Below, piece after piece: positions 15,968-56,933 of a DNA stretch of 64,000 nt (positions within the stretch are counted from its first letter, which is position 1; each line of letters starts with the position of its first letter). The position numbers and the translations under genes were made by a program. Origin of the DNA: Gammaproteobacteria bacterium (lineage in GTDB: Bacteria > Pseudomonadota > Gammaproteobacteria > SZUA-229); assembly GCA_036567985.1 (NCBI GenBank), contig DATCTK010000089.1, forward strand, positions 29,375-93,374, in the 5' to 3' direction. The notes under the pieces were generated by a model that worked only from the letters and a program-made list of their open reading frames with translations, was not told the origin of the DNA and did not search any database.

Positions 15968-15984
15968 CATTACAAAGATGTCAT
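15968..15984. promoter_or_regulatory. CusR/CopR-type copper-box-like palindrome in the divergent promoter between the cytochrome operon and cusRS
   Basis: CATTACAAAGATGTCAT. Its reverse complement ATGACATCTTTGTAATG matches the ATGACAAnnTTGTCAT CusR-box consensus at 12 of 14 positions. It lies ~70 bp upstream of cusR. An outer ATTACA...TGTAAT inverted repeat also spans 15969-15994. Confidence 0.45.
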
Positions 15985-33702: not shown

Positions 33703-33929
33703 AGGGTTCCTTCAACTTTGCAATACGGGGTTGCCTTTAATGATACCAGTATACGCGTGAGCAACAAGTTGAAAGCTGCGCGAATATGCAATGTATCACG
33801 CAAGAGTCACGCTAACAGCAAATGACAGCAAATATTATATGAAAATCCAGTTGATAGCTGCTGCACAGACCCGCAGCGATTAACGCCTGACACTGGCAGT
33901 CGGGAACTTAATGAGTAACTTAAAGGCTA

Positions 33930-34259
33930 TTAATGATTACTGGAGAAGTTATTCATTATGTACAGTGTTTCTGCACGAATCAGGCTGAGCGGTAACGGCG
34001 TTTCCAGTTGCAGACCTGCATAACCTTCATCAATGCGCACCACCTGACCACTGAGGTCAAACTCCTTGCCATCGGGAAATGCAATGACCGCACGAATGCT
34101 GTCCTTAACCATAAACGCGGGGTCTTCGTCGATTCTGACTTTCATACCATATTCAGATACGTCTTCGATTTCATACTGGTCGATATCCACCACCAGGGAT
34201 GGGCGATATGCTTGCGGATAGGCGAGTCGAAAATACTCGCGCTGATTGTAATCGTTCAT
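33930..34259 (-). CDS. PilZ-domain protein, a putative c-di-GMP receptor
   Basis: 109 aa. RxxxR (QREYFR) and D-x-S-x-x-G (DVSEYG) motifs at PilZ-typical spacing. Confidence 0.6.
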   Translation of the reverse strand: MNDYNQREYFRLAYPQAYRPSLVVDIDQYEIEDVSEYGMKVRIDEDPAFMVKDSIRAVIAFPDGKEFDLSGQVVRIDEGYAGLQLETPLPLSLIRAETLYIMNNFSSNH

Positions 34260-34647
34260 GATTTACCCTGTGACTCTTTTTATAATTTTTGTGTTTATTC
34301 ATTTGTTTTTTTATGTTCTTTAATCCGTTGATTAATGAACATTGCAGCCTGTTTATATGCCGCATCAGGCCTGAAATCATCAGTGCCTGCCCCTGAAAAA
34401 ACGCCTGCCTACAATAACCTGGCCAATAATACCCGTGACGTTTTTTACGACTTATTATCCCTTAAAAACAAACGCTTGCACCATTACCCGAACGGGTTAA
34501 AATCAGCCTCCACAACAAATAATATGCTTTTTATAGCGAGTTCAGCCACAGATTGCCAGGCATTTTTTCAAGCATAAACATTAATAATGGCCTGAATATT
34601 AAAAATCTCGTTTAAATACCCTGTTTTATACGTTTACGCCCACAGGC

Positions 34648-37600
34648 CTATTGCAAACGCTTTAACTCATACTGTTTCATTAACAGAAACACCGCAGGCA
34701 ACACCACCAGTGTTAGCAGTGTGGCACTGACCATGCCCCCCACCATGGGCGCGGCGATACGCCGCATCACCTCGGAGCCGGTACCACTGCCCAGCATAAT
34801 CGGCAGCAGACCGGCAATGGTGGCAAACACCGTCATCAGTATGGGGCGCACCCGTAGCAGCGCACCGTCAATCACCGCTTCGCGCAGCTCCTGCAGACTG
34901 ACCTCACGTTTTTGCTGTATCGCCAGTTGCTGTTTTTCAGCATAAGCCTGGTTCAGGTACACCAGCATCACCACACCGATTTCAACCGCGGTGCCCGCCA
35001 GTGCGATAAAGCCCACGCCCACCGCCACCGACAGGTTATAGCCCAGTAGATACAGCAGCCAGAAACCACCCGCCAGAGCCAGCGGCAGGGTTCCCATAAT
35101 CAGTGCCACCTCAGAAACATTTCTGAAGTTCATATACAGTAACAACAGGATGATACCCAGGGTCACCGGCACCACCGCCGATAAGCGCTGTTTGGCGCGG
35201 AGCATATACTCATACTGCCCCGACCAGGCAATCGAATAACCCGCCGGCAGTTCCAGCTGCTCAGCTACCACGCGCTGCGCGTTGGCCACGTAGCTTCCCA
35301 GGTCACGGTCGCGGATATCCACAAACACCCAGCCATTGGGGCGGGCATTTTCACTTTTGATCATCGCGGGCCCCATCTCCAGCTGGATGCTGGCGACACT
35401 GCCCAGCGCAATGCTGGCGCCATCGGGGGTCACCACCGGCAGGTTTTCCAGCTTCTGCAATGAGTCCCGCAGATCACGGGGGTAGCGTATATTGACCGGA
35501 TAGCGCTCCAGCCCTTCCACCGACTCGGTGATATTCATGCCCCCCAGTGCACTGCCGATCACATCGTGGACATCGGCTATGTTCAGGCCGAAGCGTGCGG
35601 CGGCGCGACGGTCCACATCCATGGTGATATAGCGTCCTGCCGCCACCCGTTCTGCATAGGCAGAGGCCGTACCCGGCACCTGTTTAATCAGTTCTTCCAG
35701 GCGCTTGCCAATGTCCTGTATCACCGCCAGATCCGGCCCCGCAATTTTGATACCCACCGGCGTCTTTATACCGGTTGCGAGCATATCGATACGGGTTTTG
35801 ATCGGCATCACCCAGGCATTGGTGAGGCCGGGAAAACGAATCAGCTGATTCAGTTCCTGTTTGAGCTTTTCCGTGGTCATACCCTCACGCCACTCGCTTT
35901 TCGGCTTGAGCTGTACCGTGGTTTCAATCATGGTCAGTGGTGCAGGGTCAGTCGCGGTATCGGCGCGACCGATCTTGCCGAATACGGTTTTGACTTCCGG
36001 CACGGTTTTAATCAGCTTGTCGGTCTGCTGCAATAGTTCCTGCGCTTTACCGATAGAGAGCCCGGGATAGGTGGTGGGCATATACATTAAATCGCCCTCG
36101 TCCATATCCGGCATAAACTCCGAACCCAGCTGGGATAATGGCCACAGGGAAACAAGCACAAACAAGGCCGCTAGCAATGTGACGCTGACAGGCGCACGCA
36201 ACACCAGATTAATAAACGGTGCATAAATGGCTTTTAACAGCCGGTTTATCGGGTTTTTATGTTCAGCGATAATTCTGCCACGAATAAAATAGCCCATGAG
36301 CACCGGCACCAGGGTGATTGCCAGACCAGCCGCGGCTGCCATGGCAAAGGTTTTGGTATAGGCCAGCGGCGCAAATAGTTTTCCTTCCTGTGCCTCCAGG
36401 GTAAACACCGGCATAAAACTCAGGGTAATAATCATCAACGAATAGAAAATCGGTTTACCCACTTCGCTGGCGGAGTCCGCCACCAGTTGCCAGCGCTGTT
36501 TGCTGCTGAGCTGGCCGTGCTTTTCTGTGGCCCGTTCAATATGCTTGTGCATATTTTCGATCATCACAATCGCCGCATCCACCATTACACCCACCGCGAT
36601 GGCAATACCCCCCAGCGACATGATATTGGCATTCATCTGCTGCGTGTGCATGATAATAAACGCACTGAGAATACCCAGTGGCAATGACAACACCAGCACC
36701 AGTGAACTGCGGAAATGAAACAGAAATACCGCGCAGATCAACGCGACAATTATAAATTCTTCCAGCAACTTGCTGCTTAAATTATCCACCGCCCGTTCGA
36801 TTAACTGCGAACGGTTATAGGTTTCGATGATCTCCACCCCATCGGGCAGGCTTTTTTTCAGGCTTTGCAGTTTTTCTTTTACATTGGCGATAGTCTGTAA
36901 GGCATTTTCACCGTAACGCATCACCACCACTGCACCGGCTACTTCACCTTCGCCATCCAGTTCGGCAATACCGCGACGCATTTGCGGCCCCACTCGAATA
37001 TGCGCCACATCCTTTAGCAGCAGCGGCGAACCGGCGTGATTGATTCCCAGCGGAATCTGTTGCAGGTCGTCAATCGACTGAATATAACCGGTGGCGCGCA
37101 CCATATATTCCGCTTCCGCCATTTCGATCACCGAACCACCGGTTTCCTGGTTAGCGGACTTGATCGCATTTTTAATTCGTCCGATCGTGAGGCCATAGGC
37201 ACGCAGTGCATTGGGCTGCAATACCACCTGGTACTGTTTAACCATGCCACCGATGCTGGCCACTTCCGCCACGCCGGGTACGGCCTGCAATTCAAATTTC
37301 AGAAACCAGTCCTGCAATGATCGCAGCTGGGCCAAATCATGTTTGCCAGTCCGATCCACCAGTGCATATTCATACACCCAGCCCACACCGGTGGCATCCG
37401 GCCCCAGGCTGGACCGCGCACCTTCAGGGAAACCGCTGGTGACCTGGCTCAGGTATTCCAGTACACGGGAACGTGCCCAGTAGGGATCTGTGCCGTCTTC
37501 GAAAATCACATACACATAGGAATCACCAAAAAAGGAATAGCCGCGCACATTGGTGGCTTTGGGTACAGATAACATGGAGCTGGTGAGTGGATAGGTGATC

Positions 37601-37791
37601 TGGTCTTCCACTACCCGCGGCGCCTGCCCCGGGTAGCTGGTTTTTATAATCACCTGCACATCGGATAAATCGGGAATCGCATCCAGCGGCGTGTTTTTAA
37701 CTGAATAGATGCCCCAGCCGGTGAGCATAATCGCCAGCAATATCACGATCAGGCGGTTTTTAATCGACCAGTCAATGATCGCGGCAATCAT
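34648..37791 (-). CDS. cusA: second CusA/CzcA-family heavy-metal efflux RND permease (paralog)
   Basis: 1047 aa. Highly similar to the 6658-9780 product (e.g. [21 protein letters not shown] identical). It overlaps the upstream cusB-like gene by ATGA. Confidence 0.92.
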   Translation of the reverse strand: [1047 protein letters not shown]

Positions 37792-39233
37792 TGTGCTGTC
37801 TCCTGCGCCTGCTCATTCTGCTTTTGTTCAGTCGGAGCCTGCATGCGGTTTAAACTGGCCTTGAGCCCGGCTTCTGAATCGATCAGAAACTGCGCCGAGG
37901 TCACCACGCGTTCGCCTTCGCGCACACCGGATTTAATCTCGATCCATTCACCGGATTCCAGCCCGGTCACCACCTGCCGCGCCTGGTAACGCCCTTCATC
38001 GGTTTTAATAATCAGCCGTTGCTGATTGCCACTGCGGATCACCGCTTCACGGGGCACACTCAATACATTGTCTAGTGCACCGGCATAGATCACCACATTG
38101 GCGTACATATTGGGCTTGAGTTGTTCCTCGGGGTTAGCAAACTGCAGTCGCACCTGCAGACTGCGGGTTGCCTGGTTCAATACCGGGTAAATATGATCAA
38201 CGCTGCCCTGCCAGATTTTTCCCGGCTGATACAGCAGGCTGACTTCCGCGCTCTGCTGTTTCTGCACCCAGTCACTCTGCCCTTCAAACACATCCGCCAG
38301 CACCCAGACACTGGACAGGTCCGCCAGCGTCATCACCTGGGTCTGCGGCTGCAGGTACATACCTTCACGCACATTCAACATGGTGACCACACCGTCCTGC
38401 GGTGCATGGATACTGATGGTTTGCGGCACCCGGCGTGTGGATGAAAGCTGTTTTATCTGTGATTCACTCACACCCAGCGCGCGCAGTTTTCCCTGCGCGG
38501 CGTCAGTTAATCGCTGATTGCTGGAGCGCAATGTCTGCACATATTCCGCCATGGCATTTACCAGTTCCGGCGAATAGACATCGAACAATCGCTGACCTTT
38601 TTTAACCCGGTCACCTTCGATATTCACCGCGAGGTTTTCAATCCAGCCATCCACGCGTAAATGAATATGACTCACCCTGGATTCATCCAGTGTCACATAA
38701 CCCACGGTGCTGATTTTGCGCCACAATTTTCCCGACTCGACTAGCTGGGTACGCACGCCAAGGTTGTGTTCCACTTCAGGTGAAATACGCACCCCGTCAG
38801 CTGTGGCTGTATTGTCTTCTGCATACACCGGCACCAGGTCCATGCCCATGGGCGACTTGCCCGGCTGGTCACGGCGGTAACTGTCATCCATGGGCGCGAC
38901 CCAGTAGAGAATTTGCTTTTCTGTCGATGCTTTATCGCTGTGTTCAGGCTCATTCATATCTGATTCAATCGGCACCAGGCCCATGCCGCAAATGGGACAA
39001 TTACCCGGCTCGTCTCGAATCACATCCGGGTGCATCGGACACTGGTAATCCGCATCCAGGTGTTTTGCACTGTGCTCCAGTGCAGATTCGTTTTCCAGGG
39101 TGCTTGCCGATTTTGAGAATAACCAGCTCACTGTAAAGCCTGCGGCAATTAACAGCAGAATCAGCAGCAAAATCAAAACCAGCCGACTCTGTTTATTAAA
39201 ACGGTGAATCCCCTGTTTATCAGTAGCAGCCAT
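37788..39233 (-). CDS. cusB: RND periplasmic adaptor (CusB-like) with an N-terminal CPMHP...CPICGM heavy-metal-binding domain
   Basis: 481 aa. A TM/signal segment, then YQCPMHPDVIRDEPGNCPICGMGLVPI (the same module as the CopA N-terminal repeats), then the MFP core. No CusF-like tail. Confidence 0.85.
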   Translation of the reverse strand: MAATDKQGIHRFNKQSRLVLILLLILLLIAAGFTVSWLFSKSASTLENESALEHSAKHLDADYQCPMHPDVIRDEPGNCPICGMGLVPIESDMNEPEHSDKASTEKQILYWVAPMDDSYRRDQPGKSPMGMDLVPVYAEDNTATADGVRISPEVEHNLGVRTQLVESGKLWRKISTVGYVTLDESRVSHIHLRVDGWIENLAVNIEGDRVKKGQRLFDVYSPELVNAMAEYVQTLRSSNQRLTDAAQGKLRALGVSESQIKQLSSTRRVPQTISIHAPQDGVVTMLNVREGMYLQPQTQVMTLADLSSVWVLADVFEGQSDWVQKQQSAEVSLLYQPGKIWQGSVDHIYPVLNQATRSLQVRLQFANPEEQLKPNMYANVVIYAGALDNVLSVPREAVIRSGNQQRLIIKTDEGRYQARQVVTGLESGEWIEIKSGVREGERVVTSAQFLIDSEAGLKASLNRMQAPTEQKQNEQAQETAQ

Positions 39234-39373
39234 AGCACACCTCCGTTAAACACAGCAGGCATAAACTCGACGGACTAAACAGCGTTGATGTTGAAATTTT
39301 CATTGGACGTACCTTCACAGTTAAGCACAGAAAAACCTGCAAATAGCATTGCAGACACGGGCGTGAAGGTCGT

Positions 39374-39862
39374 TTAGATTAACAGAACAGTATTAAGACT
39401 TAAGGGAGGCCGACTGGTTTGCCGGTAATGAAGATCCTGGTAACGCAGGCTGACAGCATCCACTAACTGCGTGGTATCTGCCTGTAATTCAAAACTTACG
39501 GGATAAAAAGCCAGTGCTGCAAACAGCTGCAAGGCAGCGGCCTGCTGGAACAGCTTATCCTGCTGCGCTTCCACTGCATCACACAGAGCCGGTGGGCAGC
39601 AACAGCCGTTATCGCTCGATGCATTAGCCGAAACGATGGGCGTTACGTCAGCCGGCTGACCGGCCTGCATTTCACAATGTGATTTCTGCACCGGCTCGAC
39701 ACTAATGGTTTTATGCTGCTGCATAGCCTGCTGCATAGCCTGCTGCATCGCAGCATGCAGCGGCATCTGCATGCTCATATTTAAAACCGACAGCACAAAC
39801 AGCGCCAGCACCCAGCGGGCGGCGCGTTTAAGTTGCATGGGTCGGTTCAGTTTAAGCATCAT
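39374..39862 (-). CDS. secreted hypothetical protein with a (AMQQ)x3 repeat and a CCCPP Cys cluster. First gene of the second cusBA operon.
   Basis: 162 aa. Signal peptide. The DNA shows a 12-bp x3 tandem repeat (ctgcatagcctg) at ~39720-39760. Contains HCEMQ and GCCCPPALC. Confidence 0.45.
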   Translation of the reverse strand: MMLKLNRPMQLKRAARWVLALFVLSVLNMSMQMPLHAAMQQAMQQAMQQHKTISVEPVQKSHCEMQAGQPADVTPIVSANASSDNGCCCPPALCDAVEAQQDKLFQQAAALQLFAALAFYPVSFELQADTTQLVDAVSLRYQDLHYRQTSRPPLSLNTVLLI

Positions 39863-39946
39863 GGTTCTGATTATAGCAAATCGCTATTAAGTGACAATGC
39901 TGGGATTTACTGGTTCCACTGTACCTGATGTGATCCTACGTGAGAT

Positions 39947-39977
39947 GTCGTTAGTCGTTCGTCCTTCGTCATTAGTC
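39947..39977. repeat. degenerate GTCNTTN heptad array (GTCGTTA, GTCGTTC, GTCCTTC, GTCATTA, GTC), related to the 28414-28483 array
   Basis: 7-bp periodicity in the upstream region of the 39862 operon. It has the same register and strand as the (GTCTTTC)/(GTCATTC) array upstream of the ykgJ-like gene. Confidence 0.6.
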
Positions 39978-40011
39978 AAAAGCGTTCATCACACAGCTTG
40001 TGTGATTCCGG

Positions 40012-41016
40012 CTACGTCCGGGCAGCCAATGCCAGCGCCCCCAGCAAACCAACAGTTTCGTCGGTAATCAGCTTTACCGGCAGGGCCCGCAGGTTATCGC
40101 TCATCAGCCCCTTCTGGGTAAAGGCACTGATAAAGGTCTCGCTGTGCAATGCGGCACTTATCTTGGTTGCAATTCCCCCCGCAATATACACCTCATGCAA
40201 GGGATAGTGATTGAGCACTGCGTTACCCGCAGCCCCGCCATAGATTTCAACGAACAGCTCAAGGGTCTGCTGGCACAATGCATCACGCCCCGCCAGTGCT
40301 GCTTCGCTAATTATCTGTGCGCTGTTCTCGTATGACAGGCGAGCCTCAATATCTGCCGTGGGCTGCAGGCCCAGGTGCTGTTGTAAAAAGCGGTAGATCA
40401 CATAGAAACCGCGGCCGGAGAGAATGCTTTCCAGACTGACATGGGCATTGTCCCCCTGAAGATACGCAAGCAGAGCCGTCTGCAGGGCGGATTCCGGTGC
40501 AAAGCCTGCGTGTCCTGTTTCGGTTGGCAGCACCTGCCAGCCACCATCAATCCATAGCCTGTGGGCCACCCCCAGGCCGGTACCGGCACCGATGACCAGG
40601 GCAGACGGCGGTGTATTGCTGTCGGAGGGTTCACCCTGCTGCAGGGTTTCTATCTGCTGTGGACTTAGCTGATCAATGCCATAACAGACCGCAGTAAAAT
40701 CATTGATCAGCTTCACCCTGCTTATCTGCAACTGCTGTTGCAATGCACGGCCTGAAATCTGCCAGGGCAGATTGGTGACCGAAGTATGGTAGTCCCCCGC
40801 ATGCTGTAATACGGGACCTGCCACCGCAATACAGGCGGCATCCAGTGAACCGGCAGCGTTGCACTCTGCCAGAAAAACCGCCAGTGCCAGATCGAAACGT
40901 GGATAGTCAGCACTGGCATAGCTCTGCTGATGCAATGGTTGCATCCTGTTACCGTCTGGCTGTGCCAGGCAGAACCGTGTATTGGTGCCTCCTACATCTG
41001 CGGCCAGTAGCGGCAT
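40012..41016 (-). CDS. glk: glucokinase
   Basis: Trimmed to MPLLAADVGGTNTRFCLAQ... (334 aa), which is the ROK/glucokinase N-terminal ATP motif. The ORF track extends 46 codons further upstream. Confidence 0.8.
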   Translation of the reverse strand: MPLLAADVGGTNTRFCLAQPDGNRMQPLHQQSYASADYPRFDLALAVFLAECNAAGSLDAACIAVAGPVLQHAGDYHTSVTNLPWQISGRALQQQLQISRVKLINDFTAVCYGIDQLSPQQIETLQQGEPSDSNTPPSALVIGAGTGLGVAHRLWIDGGWQVLPTETGHAGFAPESALQTALLAYLQGDNAHVSLESILSGRGFYVIYRFLQQHLGLQPTADIEARLSYENSAQIISEAALAGRDALCQQTLELFVEIYGGAAGNAVLNHYPLHEVYIAGGIATKISAALHSETFISAFTQKGLMSDNLRALPVKLITDETVGLLGALALAART

Positions 41017-41226
41017 AATGCTCCTCTGCTTCTTAAGTAAAGAATATCTATACGGCAGATTAACCACTATCCAGCATCGACTCAAGAAATTAACGCGGGC
41101 AATTACAACAGGCAATGATCCGCTTATCTGTCCAGCCAAAATATGCTGACGCATCCAGCATGGACACAGCTATGACAAAGTCCGCGGCTTACATTAAACT
41201 AGCCTGACGTTAGAACAGGAAATTAA

Positions 41227-42879
<1,653 letters not shown>

Positions 42880-42972
42880 GCCAGTCATAACGTGACAGAC
42901 TGATTAACTAAAAAGCCATGGTCTGATGCATCAGCCATGGCTTTCTGGTTTTACGCAAGCCGCTGTTAAAGG

Positions 42973-45453
42973 CTATTCAACCACTGGCAGCTTCCAGATA
43001 TCACGGTTGTATTCCTGCATGGTACGATCGGTGGAGAAAAAGCCACTGCAGGCGGTATTCATAATACTCATGCGGGTCCACTGCGCCTGGTTCTGGTAGG
43101 CATGATCCACCTGGTTCTGTGCTTCAATATAGCGCCGGAAGTCCGCCAGCGTTACCCACAGATCACGGGGGTTCATCAGTGAGGCAATCACATTATCGAA
43201 AATACCCGGTTCAAATGAATTGAAGTGACCACAGGTTAACAGGTGCATCACCTGCTTCAGGTCATCATCATTATTAACGATGGCCTGTGGATCGTAATCC
43301 TGGCGTGTCTTTGCCACTTCATCGGCCTTGAGACCAAACAGAAAGAAATTTTCTTCCCCAACCGCATCCAGTATTTCAATATTGGCACCGTCATAGGTAC
43401 CGATGGTAATTGCCCCGTTCATCATAAACTTCATATTGCCAGTGCCCGAGGCTTCCTTACCTGCTGTGGAGATCTGTTCCGATAAATCGGTACCAGGGCA
43501 GATGACCTCCATCTTGGACACCCCGTAATTGGGGATAAAGGCCACCTTAAGCCTGTCACCCACCTGTGTGTCGTTATTCACCATATCAGCGACATTATTA
43601 ATCAGTTTGATAATTGACTTGGCCAGCACATAACCCGGGGCTGCCTTACCACCGATCAATACACAGCGATTGGTCCAGTGTTCGGTATCGCCACGCTTGA
43701 TGCGATTATATAAATGAATCACATGCAATACGTTCAATAGCTGACGTTTGTATTCATGGATACGCTTCACCTGCACATCAAACAGCGCGTCTGGCTTGAA
43801 TTCGACCTGGCATTGTTGTAGAACCAGATCCGCCAGTTGTTGTTTATTGCTCTGTTTAATGGCCCGCCACTGTTTACAGAATTCGGCATCATCAATCAGG
43901 GGCTTGAGTTTTTCCAGCTGTGGAAGATCATTAATCCAGCCCTGACCGATTTTATCGCTGATTAACTGGCTCATCAGTGGGTTGGCATGGGCCACCCAAC
44001 GGCGCGGGGTAACCCCATTGGTTTTATTATTAAACTTGTGCGGCCAGAGCTCGTAAAAATCACGAAACAGACCATCGCTCAATAATTTTGAGTGCAGCGC
44101 AGCCACCCCATTCACCGAGAAACTGGCAACAATTGCAAGGTAGGCCATGCGTACATTTTTAACCGCGCCCTCTTCAATAATCGACATACGAATCTGTTTA
44201 CTGATATCGCCGGGCCATTTGCGCGACACCTCACGTAGAAAGCGAGCATTGATTTCGTAAATGATCTGCAATAAGCGTGGCAGTAATTTTTCAAACAAAG
44301 GCACTGACCATTTTTCCAGCGCTTCCGGCAATAATGTGTGATTAGTATAAGCCATGGTTTGCGTGGTGATGTCCCAGGCCTGTTCCCAGCCCAGCCCTTT
44401 TTCATCCATCAACAAACGCATCAGCTCTGCCACGGCAATAGTGGGATGGGTATCGTTCATCTGGAAGACATTGTGCGCGGCAAAGGCATCGTAGTTATTG
44501 CCTTCGTTCTGCTCCCACATGCGCATTACATCCTGCAGGCTGGCGGAGGCAAGAAAATACTGCTGTTTCAGGCGCAGCTCCTTACCACTTTCACTGGCGT
44601 CATTGGGATAGAGCACCATCGATATATGCTCGGCGTCATTCTTACTGCTCACCGCTTCTGAATAGCTGCCCTGGTTAAAATCACTCAGATCAAATACATT
44701 GGTCGCGGTTGCACTCCACAGACGCAGTGTATTCACCGTGTTATTTTTATAACCGGAGATGGGCACATCATAGGGTATTGCCAGCACATCGGTACTGCTG
44801 ATCCACTGGTGATACATAATCCCTTTGCTATCAGTATGCCGTTCTACATGCCCGCCGAATTTAACTAGCTGGGTGTATTCAGGCCGCTCGATCTCCCAGG
44901 GGTTGCCATCTCTTAACCAGTGGTCCGGTTCCTCTATCTGATGACCATTGTAAATATCCTGACGGAACATGCCATATTCATAACGAATGCCGTAGCCAAT
45001 CACTGGCAACCTCAGGGTTGCACAGCTGTCCATAAAACAGGCAGCAAGCCGACCCAGGCCGCCATTACCCAGGCCTGCATCATGTTCTTCACTGATAATC
45101 TCTTCCAGTTCCAGCGCATAGGCATTCATTGCCTCACGGGCTTCGTGTTTAATATCCAGATTAAGCAGGTGATTACCCAGGGAGCGTCCAATCAGGAATT
45201 CCAGCGACATATAATGTGCTTTGCGCACACCCTTCTGCTCATAGGCTTTCCAGGTATTACGCCAGTCGGTCATAATGTGATCACGAATGGTCAATGACAG
45301 CGCCTCGTACAGATAATTTGTATCGCAACCGACATAGCGTCCCAGATGGCGCGTTAGATAGCGCTCGAAATCATCAGCCAGTGACTCACTGTCAGTGGGT
45401 AAGGGGTCGAGTTCCGGTATATCAATACCGCATAAGGTTTTATTTTTACTCAT
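42973..45453 (-). CDS. glgP: glycogen/maltodextrin phosphorylase
   Basis: 826 aa. GT35 signatures, including the PLP-lysine region EASGTGNMKFMMNGA. Confidence 0.92.
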   Translation of the reverse strand: MSKNKTLCGIDIPELDPLPTDSESLADDFERYLTRHLGRYVGCDTNYLYEALSLTIRDHIMTDWRNTWKAYEQKGVRKAHYMSLEFLIGRSLGNHLLNLDIKHEAREAMNAYALELEEIISEEHDAGLGNGGLGRLAACFMDSCATLRLPVIGYGIRYEYGMFRQDIYNGHQIEEPDHWLRDGNPWEIERPEYTQLVKFGGHVERHTDSKGIMYHQWISSTDVLAIPYDVPISGYKNNTVNTLRLWSATATNVFDLSDFNQGSYSEAVSSKNDAEHISMVLYPNDASESGKELRLKQQYFLASASLQDVMRMWEQNEGNNYDAFAAHNVFQMNDTHPTIAVAELMRLLMDEKGLGWEQAWDITTQTMAYTNHTLLPEALEKWSVPLFEKLLPRLLQIIYEINARFLREVSRKWPGDISKQIRMSIIEEGAVKNVRMAYLAIVASFSVNGVAALHSKLLSDGLFRDFYELWPHKFNNKTNGVTPRRWVAHANPLMSQLISDKIGQGWINDLPQLEKLKPLIDDAEFCKQWRAIKQSNKQQLADLVLQQCQVEFKPDALFDVQVKRIHEYKRQLLNVLHVIHLYNRIKRGDTEHWTNRCVLIGGKAAPGYVLAKSIIKLINNVADMVNNDTQVGDRLKVAFIPNYGVSKMEVICPGTDLSEQISTAGKEASGTGNMKFMMNGAITIGTYDGANIEILDAVGEENFFLFGLKADEVAKTRQDYDPQAIVNNDDDLKQVMHLLTCGHFNSFEPGIFDNVIASLMNPRDLWVTLADFRRYIEAQNQVDHAYQNQAQWTRMSIMNTACSGFFSTDRTMQEYNRDIWKLPVVE

Positions 45454-45454
45454 C

Positions 45455-46951
45455 TTACAACCTCTGGTAAATCGTCATTAATTGCTTAATCTGTTGATTA
45501 AAATCTGCATCAAACTGTGGCCACTCGAAACGCCAGTGCCAGTTGCCGCCCAGGGTGCCCGGGGTATTCATACGTGCGTGACTGTCGAGTTTAAGAATAT
45601 CCTGTAATGGAATCACGCACAGAAAAGACACCGAAGCCATCGCCAGACGAATCATGCATAGCAACCTATCCTTATCGCTGAGTTTTGTTGTTGCCGTATA
45701 ATCACTGAAAAACTCAGTATTATAATTGGCTGTATTCTGCAACCAGCCCAGGGTGGTGTCATTGTCATGGGTACCGGTGTAGATCAAATCATTGGGCAAA
45801 TGCGCATGGGGTAGATGTGGATTATGGCTGTTGCCATCAAAAGCAAACTGCAATACCTTCATGCCGGGCAGGCAAAAATGATTTTTTAATGCAATCACTT
45901 CATCCGTTATTACGCCGAGGTCTTCTGCTACCAGTGGCATATCACTGAAGGCACTAAACAGTTCATTTATCATCTGTCGACCAGGTACTTCAACCCATTC
46001 ACCGTTAATTGCGGTTTCATCGCTGGCAGGTATATACCAGCAGGCCTGAAGTCCACGAAAGTGATCGATGCGAATCATATCGAATAACTCAAGCTGGGTA
46101 TTGAACCGCTGTTTCCACCATTCAAAATTGCTCGACTGCATATAGTCCCAGTTGTATAGCGGATTACCCCAGCGTTGCCCGGTATCCGAAAAGGCATCTG
46201 GCGGCACCCCGGCGACATACTCTACTTCGCCGTTCTCATCCATTAAAAAATTTTCTTTTTGCGCCCACACATCGGCGCTGTCGGCAGCAACAAAAATCGG
46301 CATATCACCAAACAGCTCCACATTATGCTGTTTTGCATAATCACGAATTTCATGCCACTGGGTAAAAAACACAAACTGTTCAAACAGCGTTTGTGAAATA
46401 ACAGATGCCAGTTCCTCGCGCACGGTTTGCAATACCTGCAAATCACGGTGTCGTTCCTGCAGCGGCCAGCTGGTCCATGTCTGGCCCTGATTACGCGCTT
46501 TTAATGCAACAAACAAGCTGTAGTCATCCAGCCAGTGCCAGTGTTTTAACCTGAATTCCTCAAATCGTTTCAGCCAGGACTCACTGGCTGTCGTATAAAA
46601 CTGTTGTCCGGCCTGTTGCAGACACGCCAGTCGATAGCCATCGGCGCTTTCATCCAGCGTTATTTTTTCCAGATCAAGCCAGCCTTTATCCACCAGCCAG
46701 TCGAGACTGATCAGAAACGGATTACCTGCATGGGATGACAGACACTGATAAGGCGATTTATCTTCATGGGTTGGGCCCAGTGGCAACATCTGCCACACCC
46801 GATAGCCCTGCTGCTGCAGGAACTCGATAAAGCGATAGGCATCATGCCCCATATCACCGTTATCGCCACGCCCGGGAAGTGAAGTCGGGTGCAATAACAC
46901 ACCGGCACGGCGTGCCCTGTTTACTCCCCCGGCTGCGGTAGACTGGTTCAT
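45455..46951 (-). CDS. malQ: 4-alpha-glucanotransferase (amylomaltase, GH77)
   Basis: 498 aa with GH77 conserved blocks (GVLLHPTSLPG, IRIDHFRG, EDLG). Confidence 0.88.
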   Translation of the reverse strand: MNQSTAAGGVNRARRAGVLLHPTSLPGRGDNGDMGHDAYRFIEFLQQQGYRVWQMLPLGPTHEDKSPYQCLSSHAGNPFLISLDWLVDKGWLDLEKITLDESADGYRLACLQQAGQQFYTTASESWLKRFEEFRLKHWHWLDDYSLFVALKARNQGQTWTSWPLQERHRDLQVLQTVREELASVISQTLFEQFVFFTQWHEIRDYAKQHNVELFGDMPIFVAADSADVWAQKENFLMDENGEVEYVAGVPPDAFSDTGQRWGNPLYNWDYMQSSNFEWWKQRFNTQLELFDMIRIDHFRGLQACWYIPASDETAINGEWVEVPGRQMINELFSAFSDMPLVAEDLGVITDEVIALKNHFCLPGMKVLQFAFDGNSHNPHLPHAHLPNDLIYTGTHDNDTTLGWLQNTANYNTEFFSDYTATTKLSDKDRLLCMIRLAMASVSFLCVIPLQDILKLDSHARMNTPGTLGGNWHWRFEWPQFDADFNQQIKQLMTIYQRL

Positions 46952-48654
46952 GGCTGGTGCTGCCCTGGCAACATGGTGCCCGACTGTTGCGTATCGCTAC
47001 TGCCGAATGAAAATGCATGGGCCAGGTATTCCGGCGGTTCGAGTTTTAAAATCTGGTACAGATTACTTAGATGCAGGCGATACTGCTCATCAAATGCTTC
47101 CACTGATTCCGCCGAATTATATTCACCGAACCACCAGAACCAGTCGGAACTCTCGCAGGTCGCCAGCTGCATTTCCGCTGCACTGCGTTCATCATCTGCC
47201 AGGGTCGAGCCGGCCATGACCCTGTCATAGGCCTGCTTGGCTTCGATGAGCATATCCCAGGCACGGTTTTTATCCTCCTCACCTATCCAGGTTGAGAAGG
47301 TGCCGTATACCCAGCTGCCGGCAACGATTTCGCTGAGTACAGTGGGTTCGGCCGGCTGTTGCAGATAATCACTGTAGGTGGTGAGGTTTAATGAGGGGTG
47401 CTGACTCAGCTTGTCATAAAGCGCGGTTAAAAAATGATAACCATTCTGCGGATAGTATTCCCAGGCATTTTCACCATCGAGAATAATCGACACAATGGCA
47501 TTGTTCTGTGTGGCACATTTTTCCGCAATGCTTTCCAGGTGGCTAATCAGGTTGGCCACTGCATCATCCGCATGCCAGTCGGAATATTTAAAGCCGATTA
47601 AATCAGACAGACCATCATCACGAAAGAAACAATGAGTTTTTGTGCCCTGCAATTGATATGCGCTATGAATGCAGTCGCCCGCTTCAATAGAAGATTTTTG
47701 TAATGAATGGCGTAATACGGTTTCGCCACTGGCCATCCATTTGATATTGAGCTGGTCACAAAGCTCAATGGTTTCACGGCTGATACTGCCTTCGGACGGC
47801 CAGCAGCCGGCGGGATCAAAACCGAAGTAGTGCCTGAATGTCTGTATTCCCTTCTGCAAATGCCAGCGGCTGCGTTCCAGCCCGCCGGGGTAATGCCGAG
47901 CCTGGGGCAGTGCAGCATCCGGCATGGCCTGCTGAGCCGATTCAATATCAATTAACAGTGGCACAATCGGGTGCGCATAGGGTGTCATTGACAGTTCAAT
48001 GCGCCCCTGCTGTGCGAGTTTTTTATAACGCCCGATTACACTGCTGATGATTTCACTGTACACCTCAATCAGTGTGTGGCGATCGTGCATGGTAAAATGC
48101 TGTGCTTTATTTATCAGCGCCTGAATGCGCGAGTCATTTTCAATTACGGTTTCTGCAGTCCAGGCCAGGTGGTACCAGACCAGCAGATCCGCGAAATATT
48201 GCTCCGAGTAATAATTCAGCACCGCCTTGTTCAACAGGGCTTTTTTACCCATATTGGCAAGCATTTTAAATACGCTATAGCGTTTAATCAGTCGCTGCTC
48301 GTTGGCACGCAGACAGGACTTAACAATCAGTGCACGTCGTTCTTCACCCAGCTTCATTACCGGGTCGGCCAGTGAAGCCAGTAATGGGTCACGCAATGCC
48401 TTGCCGTGATTCAGGTACTCGTTTAACTGCTGTGCATAGTCATCTATCTGCTCTAGCAATACCGGCGCAAAGTTCACCACGGCTTTTGCCTGCGGACAGT
48501 TTTCCAGGTGACTCACCATATCCACATAATCTTTTATGGTATGCAGATATGTCCAGGGCAAATGATATTCGCCATTACGCAGGTCGCGGTATTCAGGCTG
48601 ATGCATGTGCCAGTAGAGTACCACATTGAGTTTTTGCGCGGGCTTATCTGACAT
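46948..48654 (-). CDS. glycoside hydrolase family 57 protein (GH57 alpha-glucan-active enzyme, branching-enzyme-like)
   Basis: 568 aa. N-terminal [13 protein letters not shown] (GH57 HQP motif) and further GH57 blocks. It overlaps malQ by 4 nt within the glg operon. Confidence 0.75.
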
Positions 48655-49918
48655 AATGCAGTGTCTGTCCTAACATATCCGGTGTAACCAGTACCACGCC
48701 GTTGGGTGAAACATAATAACGCTCTGCATCCTCCTCGGCATTCTCACCAATCACCGTGCCGTCTTTTATATCGCAGCCCTTGTCAATCACCGCATGCTTT
48801 ATCACGCAGTTCTTGCCGATGCGCACATTAGGCAATACCACAGAGGAATCAATTACGCTGTAATCGGCAACCGTTACATTGGAGAATAGTAAGGAGTGGC
48901 ACACATGAGCGCCGGAAATAATACAACCGCCGGAGACCATCGAATCCACGGCCATACCTCGGCGGTCGTCATCATCGAAAATAAATTTTGCCGGTGGCAA
49001 CTGTTCCTGGCTGGTCCAGATAGGCCAGTCCTCATCATACAGATTGAGCTCGGGAGTGACACCGATCAACTCAAGATTGGCTTCCCAGAACGAGTCGATG
49101 GTACCCACATCACGCCAGTAGGATTGAATACCACTGTCGGCATCCTTGAATGGATAGGCAAACACCCGATATTTCTCAATCGCATAGGGCAAAATGTTTT
49201 TACCAAAGTCGTGACTCGAATCTTTGGTGTCCGCGTCACGAATCAATAGCTCGAATAGCAGATCGGTATTGAAGATATAAATACCCATCGAGCACAGTGC
49301 CTCATCCGGTCGACCCGGCATGGCTTTGGGATTTTGCGGTTTTTCCGCAAATTCTTTAATACGCAAATCCTTGTTCACCGACATCACGCCGAAGGCGGAT
49401 GCCTTGTCAATTTCCACGCCAATACAACCTACGGTGACATCCGCCTTGCTTTCAACGTGCTTGGCAAGCATGTCACCATAGTCCATTTTATAAATGTGAT
49501 CCCCCGCCAGAATCAGTACATGATCCGGCGAGTGACTGCGAATAATGTCCAGGTTCTGATAAATCGAGTCAGCAGTGCCCGAATACCATGAGGCTTCTAT
49601 GCGCTGCTGTGCCGGTAGCAGTTCAACAAACTCGCCAAACTCACCGCGCAGGTGTCCCCAGCCTTTCTGGATATGACGAATCAACGAATGCGCCTTGTAC
49701 TGGGTTAACACACCGATACGACGAATTCCGGAGTTAATGCAGTTGGACAGGGGAAAATCGATAATGCGAAATTTGCCACCAAAGGGCACTGCGGGTTTGG
49801 CGCGCCAGATGGTCAGGTGCTTGAGACGCTCGCCTCGCCCGCCAGCCATAATCAATGCCAGGGTGTTGCGCGTGAGGTTACTGATGTAACGTGGTGACTT
49901 TTTTGGCTTCATATACAT
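48644..49918 (-). CDS. glgC: glucose-1-phosphate adenylyltransferase
   Basis: Start taken as MYMKPKK... (49912 is also possible). A strong match to enterobacterial GlgC throughout ([56 protein letters not shown]..., C-terminal LbH repeats). Confidence 0.92.
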
Positions 49919-50409
49919 TTGCTCTCGTTTCAATCCTTTAAAAAACGCCCGATACCGGCAACTGTATGGTAACTGATCTGACTGACACACACTGTTACCG
50001 AATTATGAATGCAACATACAGGCCATTCTGTGCGATATACAACTGCAGCAATATCCGCTATTACAGCGGATGGCTGCGCCCAACCTGTGCAAGCGCTGTT
50101 CAGGGACGACACAATTGCCTTATTTGGGTGCGCGCCCCGGTTTTTATAGCAAATAGTCTACGCCTAAACCAGCAGGAAGCCAGCGTTGCGGCGCTATATA
50201 ATTCATTATTCAGGTATTATTCAGGCCTGGACTGCTCAGGGCAAACAGATCGATTGTGCACAAAACTTGCTGGTATGCTTTATAGTGCATGACGACAGTT
50301 TCAGGCCAGCGAAGTCAGTTAAAATCTCTGTTACTATGAACCGTCTGTAATTAAGATCGAACCTAAACCCCGGCCTTCGCCTACCGCAGGCCATTACACA
50401 GTAGCCCAT

Positions 50410-52596
50410 ATGATTTCCAGTCGCATCAAAGACAGCATAGACCCGAATGCCCTGCAGCAAATTGCCGAGGCACGGCATCATGATCCATTCAGTCTACTTG
50501 GTAACCAGACGGCTCATGCCGATGTGTTTCTACTGGCCTATGCGCCGGACACAAAGGACCTGCAAATCATCGAAACGCAGCAGTCGGGCCAGCGCCTTGA
50601 GTCCAGCGACTTTTTTGTGTTTGATCTGCAGCAGCAAACACTGCCCGGCCATTACCGCTTCAGGCGCTGTGATAACCAGGATCAGCTCAACGAGTATTAC
50701 GACCCCTACAGTTTTTCTCCACAGATAGGCGAACTGGATCTGCACCTGTTTGGAGAAGGCAGACACCTGCATATTTATCGCCAGCTTGGGGCTCATCCGG
50801 TACAGATTGATGGCATCGATGGTATCCGTTTCGCCACCTGGGCACCCAATGCCTCGGCGGTGAGTGTATGTGGTGACTTCAATCACTGGGACAACCGACG
50901 CCATCCGATGCGCTGTCACGGCAGCAGCGGCGTATGGGAATTATTTATTCCGGGATTACCGGCCGGCACGCTGTATAAATTCGCCATCCGCAATCGTCAC
51001 AGCGGCCATATACTGTTCAAATCCGACCCCTATGCCCAGCAACTGGAGATGCGCCCCCACACCGCCTCGGTGGTGCGCGATGATACAGCCTATCAATGGC
51101 AGGATCAGGCCTGGCTGCAACAGCGTGAAGCCTTCGACTGGTTACATCAGCCACTCTCGATCTACGAATGCCACCTGGGTTCCTGGCAACGGGATGATCA
51201 GGGTGACTTTCTTAATTACCGTGAACTGGCGCATCGACTGGTGGATTACGTCAAACCACTGGGGTTCAGCCATATCGAACTGCTGCCGATAACCGAACAC
51301 CCGCTGGATGCCTCCTGGGGCTACCAGACCACCGGTTACTTTGCCCCCACCCGACGCTTCGGCGAAGCCAGTGATTTTCGCTATTTCGTGGATTACTGCC
51401 ACCAGCATGACATAGGCGTGATTCTCGACTGGGTGCCGGCGCATTTTCCCAAGGACGAGCACGGCCTGGCCCGTTACGATGGCAGCCCATTATATGAACA
51501 CGAAGACCCGCGCCGGGGTGAGCACCGGGACTGGGGCACACTGATTTACAACTATGGGCGTAATGAAGTTAAAAACTTTCTGATCTCCAGCGCGATCTTC
51601 TGGCTGGAAGAGTTCCACCTGGATGGCCTGCGCGTGGATGCGGTTGCCTCCATGCTGTACCTGGATTATTCCCGCAATGCCGACGACTGGATTCCCAACC
51701 AGCATGGCGGCAATGAAAATATCGAGGCCATTGAGTTTTTGCGTGAACTGAACAGCGCCACCCATGCCCACTTTCCCGGCACGCTGATTATGGCGGAGGA
51801 ATCCACCGCCTGGCCACAGGTAACCCGCCCGGTGACACTGGGTGGTCTGGGCTTTAGTATGAAATGGAATATGGGCTGGATGCACGACACCCTGAACTAC
51901 CTGGCCCATGACCCGATTTATCGCCATTACCATCACGACAAACTGACCTTTGGCCTGCTCTACCTGTTCAGTGAAAATTTTGTACTGCCGTTTTCACACG
52001 ATGAAGTGGTTCACGGCAAGGGCTCGATGATTAATAAAATGCCCGGTGATGAATGGCAGCGTTTCGCCAACCTGCGCCTGCTCTACAGCTATATGTTCAG
52101 CTATCCCGGCAAGAAGCTGCTGTTTATGGGCTGTGAATTTGCCCAGGGTTATGAATGGAATCACGACACCCCCCTCGACTGGCCCTTACTGCAATACCCC
52201 AACCACAGTGGCATCAAGCAACTGGTAACCGATTTAAATACACTTTACCGGCAACAGCCAGCACTGCATCAATATGATTTTGATCACATGGGGTTTGAAT
52301 GGATTGACTGTCACGATACCGACCAGTCGGTACTCTCCTATTTACGCAAAAGCGATCAGCAGCAGATTGTGGTGATACTCAACTTCACCCCGGTAATTCG
52401 CCACGCTTACCGCATTGGTGTACCGCAAGCGGGGGAGTATGAAATACTCTTTAACTCCGACTCACACTTTTATGCAGGCAGTGACGCCGGTGGTGCTGAT
52501 AAAATCCACACAGAAGACCAGCCCTGGATGAACCGCCCGGTGTCACTGGAACTGACCCTGCCGCCACTTGGCGCACTGATGCTAAAAAAAGTCTGA
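50410..52596 (+). CDS. glgB: 1,4-alpha-glucan branching enzyme (GH13)
   Basis: 728 aa. GH13 catalytic blocks ([43 protein letters not shown]). Confidence 0.92.
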
Positions 52597-52625
52597 TCGT
52601 TTATTTTCCCGGTGCCTAATAAATC

Positions 52626-54080: not shown

Positions 54081-54100
54081 AGTTCTGTTATGTGATGCTG

Positions 54101-54304
54101 TCAGCTTTTCAGTTTTTTCGCCGAGCTAAAGCAGTCGTCACGCCATAAACAGTTGTACTGATCACACACTCCGTCGCGCGCCGTGGCAAAACAGCCGAAG
54201 TTACCTTCACTGAGCTGTATAGTTTTAACCAGCTCTACCTTGCTCATGCGTGATGGTTTAATGCCATGATCTTTGGCGATGGTTTTTATATCCTGCATAT
54301 TCAT
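54101..54304 (-). CDS. small protein with a Rho_N-like N-terminal domain and a C-terminal Cys cluster
   Basis: 67 aa. MQDIKTIAKDHGIKPSRMSKVELVKTIQ resembles the Rho termination factor N-terminal (SAP-like) motif. C-terminal C-x6-C-x4-C-x6-C. Confidence 0.45.
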   Translation of the reverse strand: MNMQDIKTIAKDHGIKPSRMSKVELVKTIQLSEGNFGCFATARDGVCDQYNCLWRDDCFSSAKKLKS

Positions 54305-54653
54305 ACTGAATCCTCCAGATTAACCGCATTGAATCTCTATCGTCGTGCTTTGATAATGAGTGATTATATCCAGTTACCATGTCACGGGGTCTGAACAGGT
54401 TAAACTTTTAACAGACAAATATTACACCAGGACGACAGCTGTAACAGACCGTTTTTGCAATGGGTGGCTTTAAGCTGAAAGCAATATGCAGGCCACAAAC
54501 AAATACATAAACGGCCCGGTCCACAAGCCTTAAGAACACGGCTTGAACCAATATCAGGCGATGCACCTCTATCGCAACCGCACTGATAAGATGCAGAGTG
54601 AAACCAACGGCACCGGTTCTGTGCTAAATAGCCTGTGCGTTATCGTCAGCGGC

Positions 54654-55316
<663 letters not shown>

Positions 55317-55413
55317 GATGAGCCTCTATGCCTTAAGCGTTGGGTTAACTGGGGCAATGCTAACACGCCTTACCCGCCTGATGATGCTATTCCGAATTGA
55401 AAAGTATGCGCAA

Positions 55414-56910: not shown

Positions 56911-56933
56911 ATTAACCTCGATCAGTCATCGAA

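Follow-up and report, generated by a model that had tools for sequence, protein, structure and literature searches.

How can a copper efflux pump be retained when its operon has no gene for an outer-membrane factor (OMF), and what is the role of the small, putatively exported protein encoded in front of it? These questions are raised by a 64,000-nucleotide (nt) stretch of contig DATCTK010000089.1 (hereafter the window; all coordinates are window positions), which contains two cusBA gene pairs. The second pair, cusB2-cusA2, is preceded by a short open reading frame (ORF), designated X. We consider it moderately likely that CusB2-CusA2 is a functional Cu(I)/Ag(I) module originating from a clade of X-cusC-cusB-cusA operons from which cusC was deleted, and that X is a cis-acting copper sensor of the CruR/CutF type. 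Individual loci of the X family are referred to below by L numbers.

The second cus operon has no gene for an outer-membrane factor

The three ORFs of the operon lie on the minus strand and were recovered precisely where the earlier note had placed them: X (39374-39862; 162 amino acids [aa]), a candidate CruR/CutF-like leader ORF containing AMQQ repeats and a CCCPP motif; cusB2 (37788-39233; 481 aa), encoding a membrane-anchored periplasmic adaptor of the CusB type with an HlyD_D23 domain; and cusA2 (34648-37791; 1047 aa), encoding an inner-membrane pump of the heavy-metal efflux resistance-nodulation-division (RND) family, Cu(I)/Ag(I) type. The cusB2 stop and the cusA2 start overlap by 4 nt. 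The gap between X and cusB2 is 140 nt, which is too small for an OMF gene. The operon is flanked by glk (40012-41154) on the X side and by a PilZ-domain gene (33930-34259) on the cusA2 side, and the ORF and domain scan found no ORF with the OMF-type OEP domain between these two genes. The possibility that an OMF gene stands just beyond the operon ends was rejected, the flanks being glk and the PilZ gene. The ORF coordinates also place the second cusBA pair about 25 kb from the first, so the earlier note was right both on this distance and on the missing OMF neighbor. Among the large ORFs of the window that were scanned, the sole one with an OEP domain was 11414-12754 (minus strand; E 2.6e-31), which encodes CusC1 of the first copper locus and is one candidate partner for CusB2-CusA2. 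As a separate observation, the glk-X junction is kept in all OMF-less relatives.

X belongs to a family of small, putatively exported proteins with a fixed C-terminal geometry

X had no match in Pfam or NCBIfam. A word-indexed search of 5.8 billion proteins returned 21 relatives, and 43 were obtained by searching 1.84 billion representatives exhaustively with a profile; profile search with a wider alignment extended the family to 77 clusters, none of which contained a Pfam domain. Only one of the GTDB species representatives carried X, a gammaproteobacterial metagenome-assembled genome, and no homologs were found on plasmids even at E <= 10. The members of the family are 106-215 aa long, mostly under 170. 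The AlphaFold2 model of X obtained with the family alignment had a pLDDT of 49 and showed no fold.

The best-conserved part of the family is the N-terminus, which in the window (residues 1-38; 39749-39862, minus strand) forms a putative export signal composed of a basic n-region, the core LALFVLSVLNM, and then Q-x-P-x-H-A-A-M. The family pattern is a basic stretch followed by LFV-S-LN...Q-P-V-H-A-A-M(Q/K), with N28, H36, and M39 invariant. On visual reading of the alignments, all members have a basic n-region, a hydrophobic core of 10-13 residues, and an AXA-like site, which points to a putative signal peptide with AXA-type cleavage after LHA. The same stretch could be assigned another role, that of a small single-pass accessory subunit of the inner-membrane RND protein, which would bind CusA via the hydrophobic segment as AcrZ binds AcrB. 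Such conservation of LFV-S-LN...Q-P-H-A-A-M, with three invariant residues, is indeed atypical for a cleaved signal peptide, and X always occurs within a CusA-encoding operon. However, a hydrophobic run of only about 10-13 residues with an AXA-like site after it (V/L-H-A followed by A) resembles a signal peptide rather than a transmembrane helix, and an accessory subunit would leave both the C-terminal spacing and the stop-codon stem described below unexplained. We regard this role as very improbable.

The linker between the export signal and the downstream Cys motif varies from 18 to 67 aa and is often rich in Met, His, and Asp; the AMQQ repeats of the window protein are located here. In some X proteins (L009 1341-1811; P0021, P0026, and P0038), the linker consists of MDHSG or MNHS repeats, similar to the Cu(I)-binding segments, rich in Met and His, that periplasmic copper proteins contain.

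The Cys motif of the window protein, C87-C-C89-P-P-A-L-C94 (39581-39604, minus strand), provides putative Cu(I) ligands. The family consensus is C-x-C-P-P-x-L-C-[DE]-x-V, with C87, C89, and C94 at least 90% conserved; C-x-C-P-P-x-L-C is the conserved element, and the AMQQ repeat sits in the variable linker. Counted from the last Cys, 66-69 aa remain to the C-terminus in 100 of 101 members, 78 of which have exactly 68; the stretch separating the Cys and PP motifs, about 57 residues long, is free of indels and weakly conserved in sequence. At the end of the protein lies a putative ribosome-arrest tail, R-P-P-L-S-L-N-T-V-L-L-I-stop in the window (39377-39412, minus strand) and (Y)RQ..PPP-L-x-x-x-T-x-L-x-I-stop in the family consensus. 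L160 is invariant, P153 and I162 are at least 90% conserved, and PP is followed by exactly nine residues before the stop codon in 80 of 101 members. The PP codons of the window gene read CCUCC, which was seen by eye in seven of nine loci inspected. With PP(P) inside its last 15 residues, X passes the rule-based CutF-like filter of Ozturk et al. An indel-free and weakly conserved spacer running up to the stop codon is expected of a ruler, so a nascent chain measured across the ribosome tunnel and SecYEG is favored over a folded periplasmic protein.

The competing view, and that of the earlier note, is that the (AMQQ)x3/CCCPP protein heading the operon is a secreted protein. In its developed form, X would be an ordinary secreted or membrane-tethered periplasmic metal-binding protein that acts in trans as a chaperone or buffer, passes Cu(I) to CusB2, and replaces CusF. 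The signal peptide, the Met/His/Gln-rich linker with its MDHSG repeats in some relatives, the conserved Cys, His, and Met residues, and the purifying selection acting on X all agree with it, as do the lack of cusF in the operon and the lack of a CusF tail in CusB2. This view gives no account of the constant 66-69-residue distance from Cys to stop across weakly conserved sequence, of the ending of the protein nine residues after PP, or of the lack of a predicted fold. A substitute for CusF would not be expected beside adaptors that have their own CusF-like tail, yet X co-occurs with such adaptors in 12 of 19 cases, and the comparable proteins CutF and CruR are quickly degraded or undetectable after export. 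The ORF, its repeats, the CCCPP motif, and the position at the head of the operon thus stand as the earlier note described them, while the identity as a secreted protein is not supported; X is better read as a cis-acting leader peptide, and the metal-binding protein seems unlikely.

A stem-loop adjoining the stop codon of X masks a Shine-Dalgarno sequence

A stem-loop (39307-39373, minus strand) begins 1 nt past the stop codon of X; its 5' arm is ACGACCUUCACG (39362-39373) and its 3' arm is CUGUGAAGGUACGU (39307-39320). The segment holding the stem (39306-39376) folds at -20.9 kcal/mol. The 3' arm includes a GAAGGU resembling a Shine-Dalgarno (SD) sequence, 7 nt upstream of the AUG at 39303, and the nucleotides of this SD pair with positions +1 to +10 after the X stop with a probability of about 1.0. 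Dinucleotide shuffles reached the observed SD pairing in 3 of 300 and 1 of 100 cases. A secreted metal-binding protein would leave a stem that abuts its stop codon unexplained as well.

The arrangement recurs in the family. X is directly upstream of cusC or cusB at every informative locus; the gap to the downstream gene is mostly 70-115 nt (38-166 nt overall, by start-codon calls), and in the window the first AUG comes 71 nt after X. The mean probability of SD pairing to positions -22 to +16 around the X stop was at least 0.5 in 10 of 23 sequence clusters, and over the 23 clusters the combined Fisher p was 5e-5 relative to shuffles. The arms differ between lineages yet remain complementary, as in ACCUUCAC/GUGAAGGU, UUUCUUCAG/CUGAGGAAA, CGCUCC/GGAGCG, and GUGAU.GUUCC/GGGGAAAUCAC. 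Conservation of the stem was assessed by alignment-free duplex and pair-probability calculations; the MAFFT alignment of the stop-to-start regions misaligned the arms. No Rfam families were detected in 33800-40300. By inspection, some lineages place the anti-SD partner in the final codons of X or in its Pro codons, which would fit a stall on PP.

Nested in the SD-masking stem is an inner hairpin (39337-39354, minus strand; CUGCAAUGCUAUUUGCAG) followed by the U-run GUUUUUCU, which together have the look of a weak intrinsic terminator. This hairpin could contribute a layer of transcriptional control.

The masked start codon opens a short reading frame that overlaps cusB2

In the window, the AUG masked by the hairpin is not the start of cusB2. 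It opens an upstream ORF (uORF; 39220-39303, minus strand) of 27 codons (MKISTSTLFSPSSLCLLCLTEVCYGCY*), whose stop codon UGA (39220-39222) lies 11 nt beyond the cusB2 AUG and out of frame with it. In L006-L008, CusB itself starts in frame at the masked AUG (MKILKSTLFNPSSLVVLL...). In L012, it opens a uORF of 25 codons that likewise overlaps the cusB start. Compared by eye with L006, the window, L002-L005, and L012 contain about 70 nt extra, leading to a cusB that has its own SD, GGAGG, and, in the window, its start at 39233.

The block comprising stop codon, hairpin, SD, and AUG, together with the first codons, aligns at the DNA level with the X-cusC junction of L018-L021, whose cusC products begin with M-x-x-S-K-S-T-L-F/L. 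Judging from this alignment, the masked AUG is the ancestral first start codon after X, and the regulatory cassette of hairpin, SD, and AUG survived the deletion of cusC. The CusB of L016 also starts with VKFLKST, so the first uORF codons could stem from either cusC or cusB.

The cusB2 SD is itself placed in a local hairpin (39228-39267, minus strand), in which GGAGG (39240-39244) pairs with GCCUGCUGUGU inside the uORF. The segment 39225-39270 folds at -11.3 kcal/mol, and the cusB2 SD is paired with a probability of 0.89-0.97. This layout weakly suggests a relay from X through the uORF to cusB2, in which ribosomes translating the uORF would act on cusB2.

X is probably translated from a leaderless transcript

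Upstream of X we found a near-consensus promoter-like site of the sigma-70 type (39870-39897, minus strand), matching at 11 of 12 positions, with TTGTCA (39892-39897) and TATAAT (39870-39875) separated by a 16-nt spacer containing TG. Only 7 nt, with no SD among them, lie between the end of this site and the ATG of X, and for this reason the X mRNA is probably leaderless or nearly so, transcription starting close to the ATG. In L001, L002, L012, L010, L009, L011, and L016, the ATG of X is likewise preceded by a -10 box at a distance of 7-8 nt. A conserved TATACTGTC was noticed 32-75 nt upstream of X in L013-L015 and L017, which belong to lineages with a 5' leader; there seem to be two promoter/leader layouts within the X family.

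Regulation of copper efflux pumps is usually credited to transcriptional control by CusRS or CueR. No CusR box within three mismatches was found near the X promoter or the promoter of either cus operon, and the count of the pattern in the window equaled that expected by chance. The only plausible site is an imperfect, CusR-box-like palindrome, ATTACAAAGATGTCAT, at 15969-15984 (plus strand), about 70 nt upstream of cusR.

X resembles CruR and CutF and may sense copper as a nascent chain

The comparison with CruR and CutF was made because a faint DUF2946 signal pointed to the literature on these proteins. CruR and CutF are small exported proteins encoded by the first gene of copper operons; they combine a Cys motif with a C-terminal Pro arrest motif at a spacing conserved within 1-2 residues, show little structure, act in cis alone, and undergo degradation once exported (PMC9426467; bioRxiv 10.1101/2022.11.11.516240; 10.1101/2025.02.05.636593). 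Copper sensed by the nascent chain alters ribosome arrest, which in turn governs Rho termination in the case of CruR or melts an SD-hiding stem-loop in the case of CutF; OEP, CusB, and CusA genes are among the commonest downstream neighbors of such genes, and CusD and SilD are in the set (PMC9426467; bioRxiv 10.1101/2022.11.11.516240; 10.1101/2025.02.05.636593).

X shares with CutF of Rhodobacter capsulatus (operon cutFOG; DUF2946-like family) the first-gene position, the small, putatively exported product, the Cys motif, the Pro motif near the C-terminus, and the SD-hiding stem-loop. CutF differs in being 118 aa long, with a CxxxC motif and PPP two residues before the stop (P109EPEGPPPRL118), whereas X has C-x-C-P-P-x-L-C and PP(P) nine residues before the stop. 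Unlike CutF, X has no match to PF11162 and is apparently leaderless, and the start codon masked in the window opens a uORF overlapping cusB2, while in the CutF case it belongs to the target gene itself. Like CruR of Bordetella pertussis (Bp2923, the DUF2946 prototype), X is a small ORF at the head of a copper operon whose product combines a putative export signal with a Cys motif and fixed spacing; the AlphaFold2 model of CruR is also poorly structured, and its intergenic region is also long. In CruR, CXXC and RAPP are 45 residues apart and RAPP is three residues from the end, whereas about 57 residues separate the two motifs of X, and its PP(P) is preceded by S, T, or R instead of the R-A of CruR. 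CruR operates through Rho-dependent termination, and relief of its arrest by copper turns an importer off; X heads an exporter, so by analogy the opposite sign of regulation would be expected, and the mechanism could involve the terminator-like inner hairpin at 39337-39354. Taken together, X is best explained by analogy as a divergent CruR/CutF-like leader peptide with its own motif geometry.

The following order of events may be proposed. The front-end module kept in the window would comprise a strong promoter, a leaderless X, the hairpin past its stop codon, and the masked SD with its start codon. The signal peptide of X would thread the nascent chain through SecYEG, and once the ribosome has reached the PP(P)-L-x3-T-x-L-x-I-stop tail, the Cys motif, 59-68 residues back, would have just emerged in the periplasm. 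Binding or non-binding of Cu(I) at the Cys motif would then alter how long the ribosome stays at, or close to, the stop codon. Once at the end of X, a ribosome would cover the 5' arm of the hairpin and thereby free the SD GAAGGU of the next start. In relatives, the freed start would be that of cusC or cusB; in the window, it would open the 27-codon uORF, with a probable relay into cusB2-cusA2. In the last step, the pump would pass the metal on to CusC1 or to some other OMF from outside the operon; alternatively, it would work without one.

Two geometries of the arrest can be considered. In the first, arrest or slow termination would occur at the stop codon itself, with the 12-residue tail in the upper tunnel, PPP near the constriction, and the 5' arm directly under the ribosome. 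In the second, ribosomes arrested on PP would be held short of the stop codon with the hairpin shut, and copper would relieve this arrest, as in CruR.

Several observations weigh against a leader-peptide sensor. A stall on PP, nine residues before the stop, leaves the front of the ribosome 12-15 nt short of the hairpin. The window protein has only PP (R-P-P), some members have P-L-P or S-P there, and PP is a weaker staller than PPP. The motifs also differ from those of DUF2946, since X has C-x-C-P-P-x-L-C and not CXXC or CXXXC, and its PP(P) is nine residues and not two or three before the stop; against the DUF2946 profile (PF11162) the window protein gave no match at E <= 1, and the E value of 0.024 obtained for 2 of 39 members is at noise level. 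In the RNA, 13 of the 23 clusters had an SD pairing probability under 0.5 with the start-codon calls used, and the fold of the whole 226-nt intergenic region is no stabler than shuffles (z 0.47), stability being confined to local stems. The relay is weakened by the hairpin on the cusB2 SD, which is not clearly conserved in L012, and by the strong GGAGG of cusB2, 140 nt downstream of X, with which cusB2 could be translated independently.

CusA2 and CusB2 are copper/silver pump proteins of an X-led clade

CusA2 matches the CusA/CzcA model TIGR00914 over residues 1-1040 with 1273 bits (cut-off 701), contains ACR_tran (E 1.6e-235), and scores 1379 bits against CusA of Escherichia coli. In the phmmer alignment to 3T51 chain A, it has Met at all three positions of E. 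coli CusA, M573, M623, and M672, which form the Cu(I)/Ag(I) site of the periplasmic cleft. CusB2 contains HlyD_D23 (E 3e-80), reaches 134.5 bits (cut-off 94.9) with TIGR01730, the generic model for RND membrane fusion proteins, and aligns over residues 95-467 with residues 29-401 of E. coli CusB (E 2.8e-59). With the NCBIfam CusB model NF007303, CusB2 (270 bits) and CusB1 (260 bits) both scored under the cut-off of 390, which places CusB2, by sequence, among CusB-like proteins outside the threshold of the enterobacterial CusB subfamily.

CusB2-CusA2 is like CusCFBA of E. coli, SilCBA, and CusCBAF of Cupriavidus metallidurans in the Met triad of CusA and the three-Met N-terminal site of CusB. 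In contrast to CusCFBA and SilCBA, the second operon has no cusC, no cusF, and no adjacent cusRS and is led by X, and its adaptor has an N-terminal membrane anchor and an extra metal-binding domain of the Cys type. Taken alone, the cusBA pair is unremarkable, a diverged paralog within a familiar type of pump.

The two pairs of the window are not closely related. CusA1 and CusA2 are 68-69% identical and the cores of CusB1 and CusB2 48%; such values, together with the trees, mark the pairs as old diverged paralogs and not as recent identical duplicates. A recent duplication of the first pair was also considered and is ruled out by these identities (CusA 69%, CusB 48%) and by trees that place the second pair in another clade. 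The related notion that the second pair is a local specialized duplicate of the first fared no better, its proteins belonging to a separate X-cusC-cusB-cusA clade. The order X-cusC-cusB-cusA was found in 37 of 37 other informative family loci (5/5 in individual look-ups and 32/32 in the metagenome scan). CusA2 is 69-77% identical to CusA of these operons and 68% to CusA1, while CusB2 is 54-60% identical to their CusB and 44% to CusB1. In neighbor-joining trees rooted on CusA1 and CusB1, CusA2 and CusB2 are sister to L013 + L016 within the cusC-containing clade, with bootstrap values of 90 and 80. The CusC proteins of X-type operons are 29-31% identical to CusC1.

Close relatives of the window share the order glk-X-cusB-cusA-PilZ, and the short contig of L010, which has an X of 45% identity, shows the same order over the part that it covers, glk-X-cusB. 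Since CusA2 and CusB2 nest inside the cusC-containing clade, the most parsimonious reading of the trees and gene orders is that cusC was secondarily lost in the lineage of the window.

The pump without its own outer-membrane factor is maintained

Comparison of the window with relatives at synonymous divergence (dS) of roughly 0.1-0.8 gave ratios of non-synonymous to synonymous substitution rates (dN/dS) of 0.05 for cusA2, 0.12-0.16 for cusB2, and 0.19-0.22 for X, in a range similar to that of the adjacent glk (0.13-0.15). The second pump is maintained by purifying selection. In tripartite pumps, the alpha-hairpin of the adaptor is the part that contacts the OMF. Conservation of this hairpin of CusB2 within the OMF-less lineage is 94-98%, no less than that of the remaining protein; its identity is 61-69% to the hairpins of adaptors encoded together with a CusC and 39% to that of CusB1. 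Given the low dN/dS and the unrelaxed hairpin, CusB2 probably still docks an OMF, and CusC1 or some other OMF from outside the operon would be the partner. At 39% identity, the CusB2 hairpin gives no indication of having converged with that of CusB1, which would have been a sign of sharing CusC1. Borrowing of an OMF, which the earlier note had postulated, remains plausible, with purifying selection (0.05-0.16) and the conserved docking hairpin in its favor.

Alternatively, CusB2-CusA2 might be independent of any OMF, moving cytoplasmic or membrane Cu(I) only to the periplasm, or be an inactive decaying relic. An OMF gene adjoins none of these operons, the arrangement being kept in all close relatives; cusA of L012 is called as two pieces of 94 + 960 aa (12021-15178), and the L010 relative lacks the Cys-type metal-binding domain. 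Decay is hard to reconcile with a dN/dS of 0.05-0.16 over a dS of about 0.5 and with the full-length intact ORFs in the window, L002/L003, and L006/L007, and an error in metagenome assembly may account for the split of cusA in L012. Independence from an OMF is opposed by the docking hairpin, whose 94-98% conservation in the OMF-less lineage suggests that docking persists. We consider both variants quite improbable and retain the view of a functional pump with a partner encoded elsewhere. For the split cusA of L012 taken by itself, an assembly frameshift and the onset of decay are the two explanations.

Metal-binding appendages of the adaptors are modular

The domain for heavy-metal binding, HMBD (PF19335), was detected in CusB2 with 73.3 bits (gathering threshold 23.6) and matched two stretches. 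The first is a Cys-type HMBD at residues 63-88 (38970-39047, minus strand), Y-Q-C65-P-M67-H68 ... C79-P-I-C82-G-M84. The second, at residues 108-135 (38829-38912, minus strand; ILYWVAPMDDSYRRDQPGKSPMGMDLVP), is a Met-type HMBD-like segment that aligns with ILFWYDPMYPNTRFDKPGKSPFMDMDLVP of E. coli CusB, ILYWVAPMD...SPMGMDL of CusB2 corresponding to ILFWYDPMY...SPFMDMDL. The alignment indicates that it is the counterpart of the three-Met site at the N-terminus of E. coli CusB, whose Met residues bind Cu(I)/Ag(I). The Met-type segment (YWVAPMD...SPMGMDL) is present in both CusB1 and CusB2, and the Cys-type copy is present in CusB2 only.

Residues 61-98 of CusB2 match the metal-binding domain of Legionella CopA (phmmer; 8OVL, E 1e-6; 3RFU, E 8e-6). 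By NMR, this N-terminal domain binds Ag+ and Cu+ via M44, C59, and M61 and has a sensing role (PMC11970713). In the Legionella pneumophila domain (8OVL), C-P-M-H is followed 14 residues on by C-x-x-C-x-M (C42 and C56 of LpCopA), and the spacing in CusB2 is identical. The LpCopA domain is cytoplasmic, whereas the CusB2 copy lies behind the N-terminal membrane anchor and is, for that reason, periplasmic; unlike the LpCopA domain, it also precedes a Met-only copy of the same motif.

The earlier note correctly saw that the N-terminal module of CusB2 is shared with CopA, which has two HMBD copies, and that the adaptors differ in their appendages, CusB1 having a C-terminal CusF domain and CusB2 the N-terminal Cys-type HMBD. 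As a sign of specialization of the two pumps, these appendages are weak evidence only, being modular across the clade. Among 19 complete adaptors from metagenome loci, the Cys-type HMBD was found in 15, the Met-type site in 19, and a CusF-like tail in 12; all combinations occur, and both appendages are often present together. The Cys-type motif is likewise common on plasmids, in P-type ATPases, and in "heavy metal-binding domain" proteins that stand alone. It is a common modular appendage, and the different fusion in CusB2 is real and represents ordinary variation. In the glk-X-cusB relative with the 45% identical X (L010 869-1189), CusB has no Cys-type HMBD; in this OMF-less branch the domain was either lost or never gained.

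The first copper locus and other genes of the window

The first copper locus, about 25 kb distant, comprises CopA (517-2958), which has a YHS domain in addition to the two HMBD copies, CusA1 (6658-9819), CusB1 (9773-11401), CusC1, and CusRS (16052-18137). CusB1 carries one Met-type HMBD-like segment and the C-terminal CusF domain and is SilB-like (PDB match 5A4G, SilB). The first cus operon is headed by a DUF411 ORF (12751-13359, minus strand) with a CGCC motif and a lipoprotein-like N-terminus, and an X-like leader for this operon was accordingly rejected. A search of all six-frame ORFs of the window with hmmsearch gave only 39374-39862, so there is no second X-like gene among them. Two ORFs of 160 and 391 aa between copA and cusA1 (3889-4371 and 4845-6020, minus strand) had no Pfam match, despite their location within the copper-resistance cluster.

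Around the second cus operon, a large glycogen and central-carbon cluster occupies 41227-59577 (pgm, glgP, GH77, GH57, two copies of glgC, glgB, glgA, pgl, zwf, and gnd). An ORF at 19830-21392 (plus strand) encodes the archaeo-eukaryotic primase domain of a TOTE conflict system fused to the N-terminal part of a helicase, and a separate ORF downstream of it, 21417-22199 (plus strand), encodes the remainder of the helicase. The whole of 19830-22199 looks like a single defense gene broken by a stop codon or a frameshift.

Implications for copper homeostasis

A bolder proposal can be put forward, although we think it doubtful in its entirety. X would represent a lineage of nascent-chain periplasmic copper sensors outside the DUF2946 models, with a 68-residue ruler, a 12-residue arrest tail that would stall the ribosome on the stop codon or beside it, and a leaderless transcript, gating a tripartite RND pump by translation alone; its cassette, robust enough to outlast its original target cusC, would drive cusBA through a relay uORF opened at a relic start codon; and the orphaned CusBA would have been retained over a long period, either by using a foreign OMF or by serving a role independent of any OMF.

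If X is indeed a copper-sensing leader peptide, the CruR/CutF principle would reach RND pumps through a family that domain databases have missed. The 68-residue ruler and a tail whose PP(P) is nine residues from the stop codon would then constitute a different geometry, which could help to establish the site and mode of stalling of such peptides. With the regulator kept and cusBA under selection, the lineage-specific loss of cusC is a natural experiment on the promiscuity of OMFs in metal RND systems. For genome annotation, "secreted metal-binding protein" should not be the default label of the small ORF in front of cus operons.

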